From positions 1-32,000 of the forward strand of contig NZ_JAKVRD010000003.1 in assembly GCF_022814865.1 (NCBI RefSeq): a stretch of 32,000 bases of DNA. Direction: 5' to 3'. Each line of letters opens with the position of its first letter. The first letter of the stretch is position 1. Below the pieces are notes generated by a model. The model did not search any database and had not been told where the DNA came from. It saw only the letters and a program-made list of their open reading frames with translations. Positions 48-27,854 of this stretch are shown in pieces. The DNA comes from Shimia aestuarii. GTDB taxonomy: Bacteria; Pseudomonadota; Alphaproteobacteria; Rhodobacterales; Rhodobacteraceae. A program made the position numbers and the translations under genes.

Positions 48-533
48 ATGCCGAAACTGCTGATCGTCTATCATTCCCGCACCGGCGGAAGCCGTCAGAT
101 GGCGGAGGCCGCCTACGCGGCCGCCAAGGAGGAGGTCGACACGACCCTCCTCAGGGCCGAGGACGCGAACCCCGACGATCTCCTGTCTGCGGATGGCTAT
201 ATCTTCTGCGGCCCCGAGAACCTCGCAGCCCTGTCCGGCGCGATGAAGGAGTTCTTTGACCGCTGTTACTACCCGGTCTTGGGCCGCATCGAAGGCCGCC
301 CCTATGCGCTGATGATTTGTGCCGGCTCCGATGGTGAAAACGCCAAGCGCCAACTGGCCCGCATCGCCACCGGCTGGCGCCTCAAGGAAGTTCAGCCCGG
401 TTTCATCATCAACACCGCCGCCCAGACCCCCGAGGCCATCCTTGCCGAGAAAACCCTCCCCGAGGAGGCCCTCGCCCAATGCCGCGAGCTTGGTCAGGCG
501 CTCGGCGCGGGGCTGGCCATGGGCGCGTTCTGA
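48..533 (+). CDS. Flavodoxin-like / NAD(P)H-dependent FMN oxidoreductase family protein
   Basis: 161-aa ORF starting at ATG 48. N-terminal KLLIVYHSRTGGSRQMAE resembles the flavodoxin/WrbA-type FMN phosphate-binding loop. The 3' end overlaps the convergent neighbour by 40 nt. Family call is from motif memory only. Confidence 0.65.
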   Translation: MPKLLIVYHSRTGGSRQMAEAAYAAAKEEVDTTLLRAEDANPDDLLSADGYIFCGPENLAALSGAMKEFFDRCYYPVLGRIEGRPYALMICAGSDGENAKRQLARIATGWRLKEVQPGFIINTAAQTPEAILAEKTLPEEALAQCRELGQALGAGLAMGAF

Positions 534-2799: not shown

Positions 2800-2841
2800 G
2801 CACCGACGCAATACCGACGTGATACCGACGCGATACAGATC
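2800..2841 (+). repeat. Four direct repeats phased at 11 bp (gCACCGACG / ATACCGACG / ATACCGACG / ATACAGATc), copy A of a dispersed element
   Basis: Unit starts at 2800, 2811, 2822 and 2833, exactly 11 bp apart. Shares a 13-bp string (gcaataccgacgt) and a 14-bp string (gacgcgatacagat) with the array at 27793-27834. Confidence 0.85.
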
Positions 2842-6952: not shown

Positions 6953-8026
6953 ATGCCGAGTGAGACCGCACCAATTCCCCTGGCCGCCCCGCGGCCGGGC
7001 GCCCTCCCTTCTGCCCACCTCTCCCGCCGCCAGAAAGCCGCGATCATCGTGCGCTTCCTGCTGAACGAAGGCGCCGATGTCTCGCTCTCCGACCTCCCCG
7101 ACGATATGCAGGCCGACCTGACCAAACTCATGGGCGACATGCGCTATATCGACCGCGAAACGCTGGCCGAGGTGGTGCTTGAATTTGCGGGCGAGTTGGA
7201 GGCCGTGGGCCTAACCTTTCCTGCCGGGATCGGCGGGGCGCTCTCTGCGCTTGAAGGGCGGATCTCACCGTTGACCGCCGCGCGCCTTCGCAAAGAGGCC
7301 GGGGTGCGGCAGGCGGGCGATCCCTGGCAACGGCTGCGGGCGCTCTCTACGGAGCAACTGACCGAAATATGCGACCGGGAGAGCACAGAAGTCGCCGCCG
7401 TCATGCTGGCCAAGCTCGACGTGAGCCGCGCCGCCGAACTTCTCGGAGAATTGCCCGGCGAGAAGGCCCGCCGCATCACCTATGCCATGTCCCTCACCGG
7501 CGCCGTGACCCCGGACGCGGTGGACCGGATTGGCCTCTCGCTCGTCGCGCAACTTGACGACACACCGCCCCGCGCCTTCGCTGACGATCCTTCTTCGCGC
7601 GTCGGCGCGATCCTGAACTACTCCCGTTCAACAACCCGCGATGACGTGCTTACTGGCCTAGACGAGGCCGACGCCGCCTTTGCCGAGGCCGTGCGCAAGG
7701 CGATCTTCACCTTCCCTGACATCCCCGCTCGGCTCAGTCCGCGCGATGTGCCCCGCGTGATCCGCGACGTGGATCAGGCCCGCCTCATCGCCGCCCTTGG
7801 GGCGGCCATTGCCCCCGAAACGTCGCCGGTCGCCGCCTTTCTCCTCGACAACATGTCGAGCCGAATGGCCGATCAACTGCGCGAAGAGGTTGAAGAGCGC
7901 GGCCGCGTCCCGCCGCCCGAGGGCGAAGCCGCCATGGCCGAAATCGTCGGCGCGATCCGTGCTCTGGCAGATGCGGGCGAGATCACGCTGCGCAACCCCG
8001 ACGACGAGGACGCCGACACCGCTTAA
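6953..8026 (+). CDS. fliG: FliG-like flagellar motor switch protein homolog (orphan)
   Basis: 357 aa. The C-terminal DNMSSRMADQLREEVEERGRVPPPEGEAAMAEIVGAIRALADAGEI matches the FliG_C signature (MSxRaAxxLrEdxExxGpV...eaAqxeIv...R.L...GEI). Strong SD AAGGAGG at 6940-6946. No other flagellar genes in the window. Confidence 0.7.
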   Translation: MPSETAPIPLAAPRPGALPSAHLSRRQKAAIIVRFLLNEGADVSLSDLPDDMQADLTKLMGDMRYIDRETLAEVVLEFAGELEAVGLTFPAGIGGALSALEGRISPLTAARLRKEAGVRQAGDPWQRLRALSTEQLTEICDRESTEVAAVMLAKLDVSRAAELLGELPGEKARRITYAMSLTGAVTPDAVDRIGLSLVAQLDDTPPRAFADDPSSRVGAILNYSRSTTRDDVLTGLDEADAAFAEAVRKAIFTFPDIPARLSPRDVPRVIRDVDQARLIAALGAAIAPETSPVAAFLLDNMSSRMADQLREEVEERGRVPPPEGEAAMAEIVGAIRALADAGEITLRNPDDEDADTA

Positions 8027-23426: not shown

Positions 23427-23451
23427 CGTCAGAACCCTGTCAGCAGGAGAT

Positions 23452-23736
23452 TTATTCGGCGCTCGCCGGTTCGGTCTTGCTCAGGACTTGGGCAATGGTC
23501 GACTTGACCACACGCACCTTGACGCCCTCGGCCAGTTCGACTTCGATTTCATTGTCGTCCTTGACCTTCGCCACCTTGCCGATGAGACCGCCTTGCGTGA
23601 CGACCTGATCGCCCCGGCGCAGGGCCTCGACCATTTTCTGATGGTCTTTCATTTTCTTCTGCTGCGGACGGATGAGCAGGAAATACATGATCCCGAAGAT
23701 CAGGATAAGCGGCAGAAACTGGCCGAATTGTTCCAT
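23452..23736 (-). CDS. yajC: Preprotein translocase subunit YajC
   Basis: 94 aa from ATG 23736 (SD GAGGAA). [26 protein letters not shown] and [14 protein letters not shown] are canonical YajC. The 56-codon upstream extension in the track is rejected. Confidence 0.92.
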
Positions 23737-23949
23737 GTGGGTGTTCCTCGTTTGCGTGCGGGGCCACCCCCCGCCAAGTCGCAGGGAACCTATGAGGCAT
23801 TGGGCGCACTTGCAAGGCGGGAACGGTCCCGAAAATGTCCCAATCGAGAGAGTTTTGCGCCCGAGCCGCCAGAGCCGCTTACGATCCGGCAAAAAATGCG
23901 CCATAAGCTGGCTCTGAAAAGTGATTCACCATCGATAGGACGAAGACCC

Positions 23950-25242
23950 ATGCACGACATCCGAGCGATCCGCGAAAACCCGGCCGATTTCGACGCCGCC
24001 CTCGCCCGCCGCGGGGCCGCGCCCTTGTCGTCCGAGATCCTCGCCCTCGACGCCGAGCGCCGCGCCAAGATCCAAGCCGCCGAAGAGGCGCAGTCCGATC
24101 AGAAGAAGGCCGCCAAAGACGTCGGTGCCGCCAAGGCGAGCGGTGATGAAGCCGAGTTCGAGCGCCTGCGCGCCCTCGTGGGCGAGAAAAAGGCCGAGGT
24201 TGCCGCGATGCAGACCGAAGCGAAAGAGCTCGATCAAAAGCTCACCGACATGCTCATGGGCATCCCCAACCTGCCCTTTGCCGACACGCCCGATGGCGAA
24301 GACGAGAATGACAATGTCGAAATCAAACGCTGGGGCACCCCGGCCGTTTTCTCCTTCGCGCCCAAGGAACATTTTGACCTCGACGGGGTCAAGCCGGGCA
24401 TGGACTTTGAGACCGCCGCGAAACTCTCCGGCTCGCGCTTCGTCGTCCTTTCCGGCGCCGTTGCCCGCATCCACCGCGCCCTCGCGCAGTTCATGATCAA
24501 CACCCATGTCGACGAAAACGGCCTGCAAGAAACCTGGACCCCGGTCCTCGTAAAGCCGGACATGATGTATGGCACAGGGCAACTGCCAAAATTCGGCGAG
24601 GATTCCTATCAGACCACCAATGGCTGGTGGCTGGTGCCGACCGCCGAAGTGACGCTGACCAATATCATCAACGGCGAGACCGTAGACGAGGCAACCCTGC
24701 CCCACCGCTACGTCGCCCATACCCAATGCTTCCGCTCCGAGGCGGGCAGCGCAGGCCGCGACACCTCCGGCATGCTGCGCCAGCACCAGTTCGAGAAGGT
24801 CGAGATGGTCTCGGTGACCCACCCGGACAAGAGCCGCGAAGAACTGGACCGCATGACCGCCTGCGCCGAGGGTATCCTTGAACGCCTCGGCCTGCCCTAT
24901 CGCACTGTCGCCCTGTGCACCGGCGACATCGGCTTCGGCGCACAGCGCACCCATGATATCGAGGTCTGGCTCCCCGGTCAGGACACCTACCGCGAGATTT
25001 CCTCGGTCTCTGTCTGCGGCGACTTTCAGGCCCGCCGCATGAACGCCCGCTTCAAACCGGCGGGCGGCGGCAAGCCGGAGTTTGTCCATACGCTGAACGG
25101 CTCTGGCCTCGCCGTGGGCCGCTGCCTTATCGCGGTGCTGGAAAACGGCCAGCGCGAGGACGGCTCGGTCGCCCTTCCCGAAGTGCTGCACCCCTATCTT
25201 GGCGGCAAGTCGGTCCTGACGGCGGACGGCACCCTCGCCTGA
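23950..25242 (+). CDS. serS: Seryl-tRNA synthetase
   Basis: 430 aa from ATG 23950. [11 protein letters not shown], an N-terminal coiled-coil arm and class II motifs ([36 protein letters not shown]). The long upstream extension (track start 23383) is antisense to secD/yajC and is rejected. Confidence 0.95.
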
Positions 25243-25307: not shown

Positions 25308-26021
25308 ATGGAACGTATGAAAGCCATCTTCGTAGTGACAGCGGCGCTCGCCTTCCTGCTGTCGCCGCTCTCCACCTCTGGCTTTAACGGTTTCACCGCC
25401 GATCAGTTCCCCATCCCCCAGACCGATCCCCCCGTTCAGCCCGCGGGCTATGCCTTCTCGATCTGGGGCGTGATCTATCTCTGGCTCATGGCGGGGGCGC
25501 TCTTCGGTCTCTTCAAGCGCGACCGGGCCCGCGACTGGACCACTATGCGCTGGCCGTTGATTCTGTCACTGGTGGTCGGCGCCGCTTGGATCCCGGCGGC
25601 AAATATGGATCCGGTCGCCGCCACCGCGATGATCTGGATCATGCTTGGCGCGGGGCTGGCCGCGCTGGCCCGTGCCGGGCGCTCTGACCATTTCTGGCTG
25701 CGCGCCCCCATCGGTCTCTATACCGGCTGGCTGACCGCGGCCTCCTGCGTCGCAACAGGGCTCGTCCTCGCCGGGCATGGCCTCCTCTCAGAACAAATCG
25801 CGGCACTTGCAATGATCGCCCTCGCCCTTCTCCTCGCGCTCTGGGTCCAAACCCGCGTCGCCGACACCCCCGAATATGGCCTCGCCGTGATCTGGGCCAC
25901 GGTCGGCATCCTCGTGGACAATGTCTCGCCGCTGAACGGTGCCGTGGTCGCGCTCTGCGGCCTTGGCCTCCCGCTCCTTGCATGGCCCGTACTGCGCGCC
26001 TTGGACAACTTGCGCCGCTGA
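25308..26021 (+). CDS. Integral membrane protein, possibly TspO/MBR-related
   Basis: 237 aa with about 6 hydrophobic segments. PAGYAFSIWGVIYLWL resembles a motif I associate with TspO-like tryptophan-rich membrane proteins. The CDS call is solid; the functional call is weak. Confidence 0.55.
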   Translation: MERMKAIFVVTAALAFLLSPLSTSGFNGFTADQFPIPQTDPPVQPAGYAFSIWGVIYLWLMAGALFGLFKRDRARDWTTMRWPLILSLVVGAAWIPAANMDPVAATAMIWIMLGAGLAALARAGRSDHFWLRAPIGLYTGWLTAASCVATGLVLAGHGLLSEQIAALAMIALALLLALWVQTRVADTPEYGLAVIWATVGILVDNVSPLNGAVVALCGLGLPLLAWPVLRALDNLRR

Positions 26022-26075
26022 TCCGGTCGCACTGGCGCCCCGAAAAGGCGCCAACATGACCTAAGACAAGGCGCG

Positions 26076-26115
26076 CCCTCCGCTTTCGCAGTACAATCTA
26101 CGAGCGAAAGGAGGG
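26076..26115 (+). promoter_or_regulatory. Leader hairpin pairing with the SD of the first gene of the orphan operon
   Basis: ccctcc (26076-26081) pairs with ggaggg (26110-26115) and tttcg (26084-26088) pairs with cgaaa (26105-26109), with a 2-nt bulge. AAGGAGGG is the SD for ATG 26120. Confidence 0.35.
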
Positions 26116-26119
26116 TGTT

Positions 26120-26443
26120 ATGAGCTACTTGAGAGTAACCAACCTATCCCGCATCAGCGCCGAAATCGAAGGGCGTTCGGGCGACCTTTCCGAAATCATC
26201 TACCTTGCGGAAGACGAACAGAAGGCGCTGCCGTTATGGCGCTTTCTGGCGGTGCAAAGCGTTGAGCCCGGTGTGTTGCGGCTCGAGCTTCACCTGCCCG
26301 GCAAAGGTGCCCGGCTCGACATGTATCGCATCTCGGAAAACCGGACCCTACGCCAGCGAAGCTTGATCGGCCCACGCAAACGCCGGCTGAGCCTGCGCAA
26401 GGATGAGATGCTGATGCTTATTCCCACCGGCGAATTTGAATGA
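26120..26443 (+). CDS. Hypothetical protein, no recognisable family (orphan operon gene 1)
   Basis: 107 aa. Very strong SD AAGGAGG 5 nt upstream. No signal peptide or TM segment. Basic patch GPRKRRLSLRK. Module-like start LRVTNLS and end KDEMLMLIP. Confidence 0.6.
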   Translation: MSYLRVTNLSRISAEIEGRSGDLSEIIYLAEDEQKALPLWRFLAVQSVEPGVLRLELHLPGKGARLDMYRISENRTLRQRSLIGPRKRRLSLRKDEMLMLIPTGEFE

Positions 26444-26462
26444 CTTCATAAGGAGACACACC

Positions 26463-27014
26463 ATGACTGAACATTTCGACATTTCCAAAATCGACGTAGA
26501 CGACCTTTATGGACAACTCGAAGCAGGTTTGGCCAAGCTGGATATTGCCAAGATGGCCGCGATTGCCGCGCAAGAGGCCAAGGAACGCCACTTGCACAGC
26601 TCCCTTGAGATCCGCAACATCGACCCGACAGGGCATCTTCTCGGCCTGCATATCGACTTCTCCGGCAAACAGGCCCGGCTGCGCATTCCGCCGCATGGCG
26701 CCCAGACCGTGCAGAACTTCAGCTTCCTGACCATGTGGTATATCCGCCTGCATCAGGATCCGCCGGTCAAACTGACCAACCGGGCGCACAACGCCTGCTT
26801 CTACGAGGTCAACCTCCTGCGCACCAATGGGCAGAACATCCAACAGCAGTTCCTCAACCCACATGTTGGCGCCTCCCATATCTATGATCTCGACGTGGGC
26901 GACCGCTTGATCGTGGTTCCGGTCAGCATGAACCAATACTTGCTGCGCCATGCCAACCACATCCACTGGGCCACCCCGGAGGACGATACCCTGATGGCCA
27001 GCGAAGAAGAGTGA
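26463..27014 (+). CDS. Hypothetical protein, no recognisable family (orphan operon gene 2)
   Basis: 183 aa from ATG 26463, with SD AAGGAG at 26450-26455; the track start 26436 is rejected. Third codon positions are mostly G/C in this frame. A helical N-terminus is followed by two module-like segments (LEIRNID..., VKLTNRA...GDRLIVVP). Confidence 0.6.
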   Translation: MTEHFDISKIDVDDLYGQLEAGLAKLDIAKMAAIAAQEAKERHLHSSLEIRNIDPTGHLLGLHIDFSGKQARLRIPPHGAQTVQNFSFLTMWYIRLHQDPPVKLTNRAHNACFYEVNLLRTNGQNIQQQFLNPHVGASHIYDLDVGDRLIVVPVSMNQYLLRHANHIHWATPEDDTLMASEEE

Positions 27015-27017
27015 TCC

Positions 27018-27740
27018 ATGTTACGGACAAAGGTTGAGATCACCAACCATAGCGGGGCGGGCACGGTCATCGTTGCCCGCTTCGAAACCAGCGCCGAGAC
27101 CGCGGGCAATCTGATGCTCGCCGGAGGCAGCAGCCAGATCTTCGAGAAGTTCGATCGCCTCACCATCACCGCCGCAAATGAGGGCGTGCCGGGGCGGTTG
27201 CGCCTGCTCAATCACGACGCGGCGGATGTCGTCCTGCGTCACATGACCAAAAGCGGCAATGTCGACGAAGACCGCATCCCCGGCAACGGGTTTGCAGATG
27301 TGGTTGTTGCTGGCGGGGATCAGATATTCCTCTCCGAGGCCCTCCCCGACCTGATCTTCCCCGAGCGCCCGATCCTGCACATGGCGATCCTGCGCCCCCA
27401 GCCGGGGCCGATCTTTGCCCCCAATCAAAAGCCCGCTGGCTTCTATGTCGATCTCGCTTGGCATCACCCGGACGAAGGCAGCGATCGCTTGCTCGGCTTC
27501 AATCTCTACCGTGCCGTCTACAAGGGCAACTATCCGATGGGCCAGCACCCCCTGAACGGTGCCCCACAGATCGGCACATCCGCACAGGTCGAAGACGTGA
27601 TCCCGCCCTACCCCTATAACCACCGCTACGCGATCATGGCGGTGAGCCGCGATGGCATCGAAAGCCTCTACTCCAACGTCCGCATCCTCGATTCCAATAC
27701 CCGCACCGATCTATTCGACGCCGGTTTCATCTGTCTCTGA
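27018..27740 (+). CDS. Hypothetical protein with C-terminal FN3-like domain (orphan operon gene 3)
   Basis: 240 aa. Its ATG lies 3 nt after the gene 2 stop. N-terminal modules VEITNHS...GRLRLL and ...GGDQIFLS. The C-terminal LAWHHP...GFNLYRAV...HRYAIMAVSRDGIESLYSNV follows the FN3 strand pattern (W, GYxVYR, YxYxVxAV, GxES). Confidence 0.6.
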   Translation: MLRTKVEITNHSGAGTVIVARFETSAETAGNLMLAGGSSQIFEKFDRLTITAANEGVPGRLRLLNHDAADVVLRHMTKSGNVDEDRIPGNGFADVVVAGGDQIFLSEALPDLIFPERPILHMAILRPQPGPIFAPNQKPAGFYVDLAWHHPDEGSDRLLGFNLYRAVYKGNYPMGQHPLNGAPQIGTSAQVEDVIPPYPYNHRYAIMAVSRDGIESLYSNVRILDSNTRTDLFDAGFICL

Positions 27741-27792
27741 CGGTCTTGTGGAGGATCAGCCGCTGTTAAGGTTTGACGGTTCGACGCGCCCC

Positions 27793-27834
27793 GCACGGAC
27801 GCGATACAGATGCAATACCGACGTAATACCGACG
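27793..27834 (+). repeat. Four direct repeats phased at 11 bp (GCACGGACG / ATACAGATG / ATACCGACG / ATACCGACG), copy B of the dispersed element
   Basis: Unit starts at 27793, 27804, 27815 and 27826, exactly 11 bp apart. Same units as 2800-2841 but in a permuted order. Lies between convergent gene ends. Confidence 0.85.
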
Positions 27835-27854
27835 TGGCATTTCGGGGTTAACCC

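Follow-up and report, generated by a model that had tools for sequence, protein, structure and literature searches.

Two 11-bp direct-repeat arrays of Shimia aestuarii belong to a sparse, replication-oriented family of intergenic sites in Rhodobacterales

Direct repeats at 11-bp spacing can be found in several described systems. The OmpR/PhoB-type boxes (the Pho box, the tor boxes and the ArcA repeats) combine a 7-bp core with a 4-bp A/T-ended linker and occur as arrays of two to five units, four in the pstS or torC promoters. Cooperative arrays of the 9+2 type, with 9-bp sites in one orientation, 2-bp gaps and sets of four or five, are known for low-affinity DnaA at oriC of Escherichia coli, for StbA at stbDR of plasmid R388 and for ParR at the parC iterons of plasmid R1; bendable A/T-rich DNA adjoins them and, as in origins, adenine-methylation sites lie nearby. 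Plasmid iterons usually have units of 17-22 bp and lie beside a rep gene or an origin. With regard to replication forks, polar barriers built of direct repeats are represented by RTS1 of Schizosaccharomyces pombe and by the rDNA arrays of Sal boxes bound by TTF-I, and the Ter sites of Enterobacterales (Tus-Ter) and Bacillus (RTP-Ter) are single sites of 23-30 bp. Fork control and termination beyond Tus and RTP are a long-standing open question, and we know of no polar, site-specific element in Alphaproteobacteria. The present work deals with two arrays of four 9-bp units at 11-bp phasing, termed copies A and B, in a stretch of 32,000 nucleotides from Shimia aestuarii (assembly GCF_022814865.1, contig NZ_JAKVRD010000003.1, positions 1 to 32,000), hereafter the window. 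Both are real members of a sparse, previously undescribed family of intergenic sites found across many marine Rhodobacterales. Most probably they bind protein in connection with replication, rather than switching purB or dddP, the genes on either side of copy A.

The sequence of copy A (2800-2841, + strand) is GCACCGACG-ca-ATACCGACG-tg-ATACCGACG-cg-ATACAGATC, its four units beginning at 2800, 2811, 2822 and 2833, and copy B (27793-27834, + strand) reads GCACGGACG-cg-ATACAGATG-ca-ATACCGACG-ta-ATACCGACG. Both span 42 bp and have an invariant ACCGAC core. The four units, their 11-bp phasing and both sets of coordinates had been reported in a preliminary description of the window and are confirmed exactly by the sequence. 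The same holds for the permuted unit order (X-P-P-Q in copy A, X-Q-P-P in copy B), both orders being normal variants within the family, and for two strings common to both loci, namely the 13-mer gcaataccgacgt (2808-2820 and 27812-27824) and the 14-mer gacgcgatacagat (2827-2840 and 27798-27811). The exact 9-mer ATACCGACG occurs four times in the window, always inside the two arrays, and the two-unit pattern with up to two mismatches gives four matches versus 0.00 expected from 100 shuffles. Tandem Repeats Finder recovers both arrays with a period of 11, and they form the top-ranked direct-repeat family of the window in a repeat search; their intergenic regions gave no convincing alignment outside the arrays. 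Chance or a simple tandem repeat can be ruled out, considering the confinement of the 9-mer to the arrays, the shuffled expectation and the occurrence of at least 117 loci elsewhere.

These loci were obtained by scanning a 596-Gb collection, with one genome per species, for the exact pattern ATACCGACG-NN-ATACCGACG. Two adjacent exact units were matched at 117 loci or more, for which about 17 matches would be expected by chance according to our own estimate, and 113 of the 117 listed are in Rhodobacterales. The cross-genome search proposed in the preliminary description thus finds the pattern well beyond the window. Among the listed loci, Roseovarius accounts for 32, Pseudooceanicola for 9, Silicimonas for 7, and Shimia and Salinihabitans for 5 each; the four listed loci from outside Rhodobacterales are not array-like. 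All family statistics given below for units, flanks, context and skew rest on the arrays among these listed matches. Four units are present in 75, three in 26 and five in 10 of the 119 pattern-matching arrays scanned, which comprise the 117 loci and the window and include 8 two-unit matches that were later set aside. The unit logo, derived from 74 four-unit arrays, consists of a 7-bp core ACCGACG and a 4-bp linker YR-AT, in which ACCGAC is 93-100% conserved and the linker reads Y-R and then AT. The first unit is distinct (GCACCGACG), and a frequent variant unit, ATRCAGAC, either closes the array, giving the X-P-P-Q order of copy A, or takes second place, giving the X-Q-P-P order of copy B. The commonest architecture is xPPx (29/74), with xxPP in 19/74.

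The 9+2 layout, the single orientation, the number of units, the adjoining A/T-rich DNA and the nearby adenine-methylation sites are all shared with the DnaA, StbA and ParR arrays. Unlike those, the family is dispersed over chromosomes and lies neither at the origin nor beside partition or rep genes. A DnaA-box array was rejected by direct comparison, ATACCGACG matching TTATCCACA at 5 of 9 positions only. Nor does the likeness to plasmid-type iterons drawn in the preliminary description hold: many arrays lie on megabase-scale chromosomal contigs, several can be found per genome, the units are of 11 bp, and no rep-type protein is encoded among 125 neighbouring proteins.

Array density is low, at about one per 0.5-1 Mb. 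In ~0.9 Mb of fetched DNA, relaxed scans and a profile hidden Markov model yielded one further genomic array, the second copy in locus L033 (a single addition in ~0.87 Mb of flanking sequence), and also recovered the already seeded array of viral contig L119 and a partial array in L129. This implies a handful of arrays per genome; at least five strict matches are present each in Salinihabitans flavidus and in one Roseovarius metagenome-assembled genome (MAG). Orthologous arrays are kept, for example, in the locus pairs L049/L054, L016/L097 and L013/L053, the last pair sharing an odd first unit, ACACCG. Since arrays are retained at these loci as the remaining intergenic sequence diverges, the comparison indicates that purifying selection acts on the array. 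The metagenomic contig of L129 ends inside an array (7032-7054), and arrays may break short-read assemblies and hence be under-counted in MAGs.

Regarding phages, an association was considered and rejected, as only one of five viral-contig matches is a true-looking array, probably located in host flank DNA. The related phage contigs L120 (4107-4200) and L121, of ~53% GC, carry different repeats made of GGTATACCGACGGTAT-like inverted and direct units, which share the ATACCGACG string and not the array architecture. A blastn search of a synthetic array against plasmids and phages gave no match, the query having probably been masked as low-complexity. Sequence and keyword searches of the literature gave no description of an element with an ACCGACG core, in line with the statement in the preliminary description that no such motif was known to it. 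No described element is known to us to combine these properties.

The property that sets the family apart from an ordinary dispersed motif is its polarity with respect to replication, which, like the flanking GTTAAC and GANTC modules described below, the preliminary description had not remarked on. On the ATACCGACG strand, 91 of 102 loci of 8 kb have a negative GC skew (binomial p = 8e-17), the mean being -0.075 (t = -12.6), and the AT skew on the same strand is positive in 76 of the 102. The GC skew on the array strand is -0.061 for genes on the array strand and -0.098 for genes on the opposite strand; being negative for both, it reflects the replication strand and not the coding strand. The base composition of the motif would bias chance matches by at most ~1.6:1 by our estimate, against the 8:1 observed. 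The array strand is therefore the C-rich lagging strand, and an advancing fork comes upon the GANTC/GTTAAC side before the A/T tracts and reaches the array last. In the window, the + strand, on which both arrays lie, has a GC skew of -0.05 to -0.13 throughout; since it is uniformly negative, the whole window belongs to one replichore, with + as the lagging strand. Of the window genes, the leading strand carries secDF, der and bamB, and the lagging strand serS, purB and dddP. Opposed pairs of arrays on one contig bracket a convergent skew switch within 170 kb in Roseovarius atlanticus and within 192 kb in Salinihabitans flavidus. A relation of the GATTCG...GTTAA combination to dif/XerCD was rejected: order and spacing differ, and no dif-like site is present in any of the 8-kb loci.

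This uniform orientation relative to the normally passing fork is held in common with the Tus-Ter and RTP-Ter systems, as would be the probably few sites per chromosome, the short DNA sites putatively bound by protein and the opposed pairs around a skew switch on some contigs. There is, however, no sequence similarity to Ter sites and no Tus or RTP homologue is implicated, and single Ter sites contrast with arrays of 11-bp repeats that have methylation sites alongside.

Profiles in which all loci were anchored on the array reveal that about 30-45% of arrays sit in a scaffold of ~120 bp composed of GTTAAC, phased A/T tracts and YGATTCG. On the left, GTTAAC follows CCGCGCGCC and has its TTAAC most often at -25/-26, the family consensus being cacCGCgCGccc.GTTAACC. 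On the right, G/C at +2 to +4 is followed by an A/T tract at +5 to +8, which is T-rich in 45 arrays and A-rich in 19. A/T peaks lie at +6/7, +16/17 and +27/28, with 78-85% A/T at +6/+7 in genomes of ~62% GC. The right GTTAAC is found at +14/15 or +25-27, and the TTAA-to-TTAA distances fall into classes of 80-82, 92-94 and 102-104 bp; helical phase is therefore kept. GANTC, mostly as (C/T)GATTCG, follows in 34 of 109 arrays, of which 26 have it at +33 to +37 and 8 at +44 to +46. The background frequency of GTTAAC per kb is 0.19 for intergenic and 0.03 for coding DNA, and its association with the arrays is enriched at least 40-fold over background. Since the A- and T-tracts are interchangeable and phased, the flanks point to a feature of double-stranded DNA, such as bending or wrapping, and not to an RNA tail. 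Both types of flank module are present in 30 arrays, one in 32 and none in 41, and the skew is negative in 28/30, 31/32 and 33/41 of these, respectively.

The (C/T)GATTCG of the right flank is the top GcrA/CcrM motif of Caulobacter (TGATTCG / YGAKTCK; PMC4647560), including its extended context YGAKTCK. The GTTAAC(C) flanks, sometimes in the form TTAACCAAT or TTAACCATG, resemble the CtrA half-site TTAACCAT at fixed distances on both sides. They do not make up a full CtrA box (TTAA-N7-TTAAC): conservation is limited to the TTAAC half, with GTTT/GGTT or an A-tract 11 bp upstream of it. In contrast to the cell-cycle cis-elements of GcrA/CcrM and CtrA, these motifs would here be accessory modules, with an occurrence in under half of the arrays. 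In the fetched Rhodobacterales loci GTTAAC is ~4-fold under-represented in coding DNA (0.03 against ~0.125 per kb expected from base composition, by our estimate) and yet strongly concentrated beside the arrays, a pattern that might reflect an HpaI-type restriction-modification system or another reader.

The two copies of the window differ in these flanks. The left module of copy B is GTTAAg (27765-27770), a degenerate version of the GTTAAC at -25/-26, and its TTAA lies at -27 relative to the array start. On the right of copy B an ATTT tract (27839-27842, +5 to +8 from the array end) corresponds to the first phased A/T tract of the family, and a GTTAAC palindrome (27847-27852, +13 to +18, with TTAAC at +14) belongs to the short spacing class. 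This GTTAAC shares sequence with the final bases ahead of the stop codon in a fatty-acid desaturase gene, and no GANTC lies 3' of it because the desaturase coding sequence starts there. Copy A is an array-only member without GTTAAC or GANTC modules, GANTC thus being absent from both copies; a T6 tract (2855-2860, +14 to +19 from its end) matches the second phased A/T position of the family (+15 to +18).

Tentatively, and with somewhat less than even confidence, the arrays can be regarded as a binding platform for a sequence-specific protein on duplex DNA, whose orientation is constrained by replication and which would serve as a polar pause or a replication-coupled switch. About four protomers, as two head-to-tail dimers, would be placed on one helix face, each reading the 7-bp core ACCGACG, with the 4-bp YR-AT linker between cores. 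In one third to one half of cases this platform would be embedded in a bent scaffold of ~120 bp, whose A/T tracts would continue the 10.5-11-bp phase and which would add a CtrA-half-site-like GTTAAC ~25 bp to each side and a high-affinity GcrA/CcrM-type YGATTCG at +35. A complex formed on direct repeats is asymmetric, and the orientation of the arrays follows fork movement and not genes; the head-to-tail complex is therefore predicted to interact with the replisome in a polar manner. It could act either as a Ter-like one-way pause or barrier, kept in its permissive orientation, or as a replication-coupled switch timed by hemimethylation. The low copy number is comparable to that of known fork-trap sites. 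That the family constitutes a true fork barrier or replication-coupled switch in Rhodobacterales, unrelated to Tus/RTP and tied to GcrA/CcrM and CtrA-like sites, is nevertheless doubtful in our estimation.

Several observations weigh against the binding platform. More than half of the arrays, copy A included, are devoid of flanking modules. In Shimia aestuarii, two arrays of the same contig (at 0.61 and 1.23 Mb) enclose a divergent skew switch of the origin type, a further difference from Ter systems, so the arrays are not restricted to the terminus. About 10% of loci break the skew rule, and these exceptions are enriched for arrays located 10-30 nt upstream of a ribosome-binding site (RBS) and ATG on the same strand (L010, L024, L045, L048, L107), a possible sign that the repeat has a second role tied to genes. 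No gene for a candidate binder recurs beside the arrays among the 125 neighbour proteins. Finally, at each of the two window loci some congeneric species have the array and others do not, a pattern that would likewise fit a mobile element. The genes downstream of the exceptional arrays include those for chorismate mutase, a glutamine-synthetase-like protein, lipoamide dehydrogenase and an ABC ATPase.

Should a true fork trap or replication-coupled epigenetic switch be borne out, none would have been defined earlier in Alphaproteobacteria; the family provides a sequence-defined candidate that is short, conserved, present in few copies per genome, oriented with replication and coupled to GcrA/CcrM/CtrA motifs. 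If the function proves to be different, e.g., chromosome organisation or a mobile-element footprint, an intergenic element with replication-bound orientation and purifying selection across genera would nonetheless be new to the genome architecture of roseobacters. In either case the arrays could be used as a marker of replichore orientation in draft genomes and MAGs.

The location of the arrays is largely independent of genes. With genes placed by a GC3-based caller validated on the window, nearly all arrays are intergenic and occur in all four contexts of gene orientation (++ 34, +- 23, -- 16 and -+ 14 of 87 classified arrays). Convergent intergenic regions, where no promoter lies, hold 23 of these 87 (26%). 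The immediate upstream gene is on the array strand in 59/90 cases (66%), against 50-61% at other gene positions, and orientation relative to neighbouring genes is weak. The distance from an upstream gene on the same strand has a median of 88 nt (quartiles 44-214). Copy A starts 54 nt after the dddP stop codon (2745) and copy B 52 nt after that of a 240-aa open reading frame (ORF; 27740). The preliminary description had drawn attention to a common offset of 53-55 nt; the distances hold, and their match is coincidental in light of the family median. Among the neighbours of 109 arrays, 138 of 168 proteins are singletons in an all-against-all BLAST, and 125 neighbour proteins fall into 177 Pfam families typical of ordinary housekeeping and metabolic genes, with no enrichment of integrases, transposases or response regulators.

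This gene context bears on the proposal that the arrays are operators of an OmpR/PhoB-type response regulator or a similar transcription factor, forming a dispersed regulon that would include purB in the case of copy A. The 7-bp core with its 4-bp A/T-ended linker at 11-bp phasing, four units of which would make two tandem boxes, has the geometry of operators bound by such winged-helix regulators, as the preliminary description had suggested for the phasing, and the per-genome copy number suits a small regulon. Some arrays lie 10-35 nt upstream of a same-strand RBS and ATG (L002, L010, L045, L048, L055, L083), and gene-proximal arrays are over-represented among the exceptions to the replication rule. 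The rest of that suggestion is not borne out, however, since the arrays have neither the fixed promoter position nor the coherent regulon of OmpR/PhoB boxes: 26% of them lie between convergent genes, their distribution over types of intergenic region is near random, and the neighbours have no common functional theme. Their orientation follows replication (p ~1e-16) and the adjacent gene weakly at most. The core ACCGACG corresponds to no described OmpR/PhoB box, and the other known direct-repeat motifs of Alphaproteobacteria do not match either. The LexA motif GTTC-N7-GTTC and the Pho box both differ from the array motif. The CenR motif, TGA-N8-TGA (PMC9275681), coincides with it only where the variable linker happens to be TG. 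A purine regulon, considered in view of purB and of IMPDH and PNP families nearby, was rejected, only one of the neighbours being a true guaB and the other IMPDH-family matches being FMN dehydrogenases.

At purB itself, the distance from the end of copy A to the ATG (2965) is 123 nt, close to the approximately 125 bp given previously. The array is not conserved at purB or dddP in relatives, whereas the purB promoter is: the promoter/leader region (about 2893-2964, + strand), which is separate from the array, aligns with that of Shimia sp. SDUM112013, including a promoter-like stretch CCTTGCC-N17-TCTAAACCGCGCGCAAC, and the array segment does not. Together with the 23/87 arrays between convergent genes, this speaks against the role of upstream activator of purB that had been envisaged for copy A, and an operator function is decidedly unlikely for the family as a whole.

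The comparison with relatives also concerns the other side of copy A. The DddP of the window is 100% identical to protein P0001, which places the window in Shimia aestuarii. No array is present downstream of dddP in Shimia sp. SDUM112013, S. thalassica or Pelagimonas, where other genes precede purB, and dddP directly adjoins purB only in the present genome among those compared. A NUDIX gene and three small ORFs lie between dddP and purB in SDUM112013, and a gene for an alpha/beta-hydrolase-OsmC fusion follows dddP in S. thalassica and Pelagimonas. An array at the same 3' offset from dddP orthologues, which the preliminary description had proposed to look for, was thus found in none of three relatives, and with family neighbours being unrelated, a dddP- or cargo-linked 3' element gains no support. 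At the second locus, serS and the desaturase gene are adjacent and convergent in S. thalassica and SDUM112013, with a plain bidirectional terminator between them. In the window they are separated by a 2.6-kb insertion made of four co-directional orphan ORFs (25308-27740, + strand; 237, 107, 192 and 240 aa), with copy B at its 3' boundary. In L129, from a closer relative whose desaturase is 76% identical, an array with TTAAC and GATTCG comes right after the desaturase gene.

Such differences raise the possibility of a mobile-element relic, or of a cis-site acquired by replication-oriented insertion (Tn7/TnsE-like, or IS200/IS605-like with a single-stranded form entering the lagging-strand template), in which case the polarity would record the mode of insertion and not a present function. 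A strong replication-strand bias is a hallmark of single-strand-transposing elements such as IS200/IS605, and the family has such a bias. Array presence differs between Shimia species at both loci, copy B bounding the orphan-gene insertion and copy A lying where relatives have other genes. The L129 contig ends inside its array, which is typical assembler behaviour at repeats, and a target or cleavage motif might be seen in the TTAAC that flanks the array on either side. Being intergenic, dispersed and often at gene 3' ends, the arrays also have much in common with REP/BIME, RIME, MITEs and IS200/IS605 miniatures, the last of which share the strand bias. Unlike these, however, the family is not palindromic, its copy number is tens-fold lower, and its copies within one genome share motif modules, with no full-length identity and no terminal inverted repeats found between them; the only palindrome is the GTTAAC hexamer. 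The subterminal hairpins or folded bottom strand of IS200/IS605-type or attC sites are not found either, according to fold z-scores and the lack of conserved pairing, and pairing between the two flanks is no stronger than in a mismatched-pair control (-8.57 against -8.32 kcal/mol, p = 0.77). No transposase or integrase occurs among the 125 neighbours, and no tRNA gene adjoins an array in the loci. These two observations and the lack of compositional asymmetry across arrays (GC difference of 0.3-0.7%) also led to the rejection of an integrative-element att site. Conservation extends past the left TTAAC into CCGCGCGCC and past the right one into GATTCG, so that the TTAACs are not simple target duplications, and arrays persist at orthologous loci while flanks randomise.

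Besides, gene content is fluid in the neighbourhood of copy B. A gene for a trypsin-like serine protease, found between serS and yajC in two Shimia relatives (L127, 8439-9092; L128, 8498-9151), appears to be missing in the window at about 23427-23950, and in SDUM112013 der and the desaturase gene are separated by an additional gene for an MFS transporter. Because gene content differs at several other points nearby, adjacency of an array to an indel is weak evidence, and a mobile origin is considered unlikely. As for the four orphan ORFs, no Pfam, NCBIfam or PADLOC match was obtained, so that a defence system or a known family was rejected, and they have no homology to the small genes beside dddP in relatives, from which they might have been translocated.

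A last explanation is that of an RNA element, either a small RNA gene or a module of a 3' or 5' untranslated region that would titrate an RNA-binding protein or a complementary RNA. Given its low self-complementarity, the repeat would remain single-stranded. Many arrays begin 5-40 nt past a same-strand stop codon, and highly expressed RNA genes typically share the direction of replication, which would fit provided that the G-rich strand gives the transcript. Conversely, the arrays occur in either orientation relative to neighbouring genes, and the tract following them is A-rich in ~30%, which is incompatible with a U-tail. No Rfam family is matched at gathering or permissive thresholds. Consensus scans for promoters and terminators at both window loci gave nothing relevant, no conserved promoter or intrinsic terminator being apparent, and candidate sigma-70, sigma-54 and ECF-type promoters sought by eye in the right flank are inconsistent across the two spacing classes. 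Folding of the two strands of both copies does not exceed shuffled controls (z = +0.68, +1.20, -0.70 and +0.48), and an RNA function appears very improbable. An apparent stem enclosing copy A (GGCGTT..GGCG / CGCC..AACGCC, 2789-2854) was considered as a terminator-like hairpin (GGCGTT..AACGCC, then T6) with the array in its loop, and was rejected, being no feature of the family and having z = +0.68 against shuffles.

With regard to individual gene contexts elsewhere in the family, the array of L007 (about 211-252, reverse strand) lies inside a coding region, where the opposite strand encodes the N-terminal part of a signal peptide (MNGTSVLRRYRVGIAAVLFALAGPAMA...). In L009 and L079, an ORF located 310-375 nt downstream of the array has the composition typical of a spurious frame within an rRNA gene, so that both arrays could be situated immediately 5' of rRNA operons.

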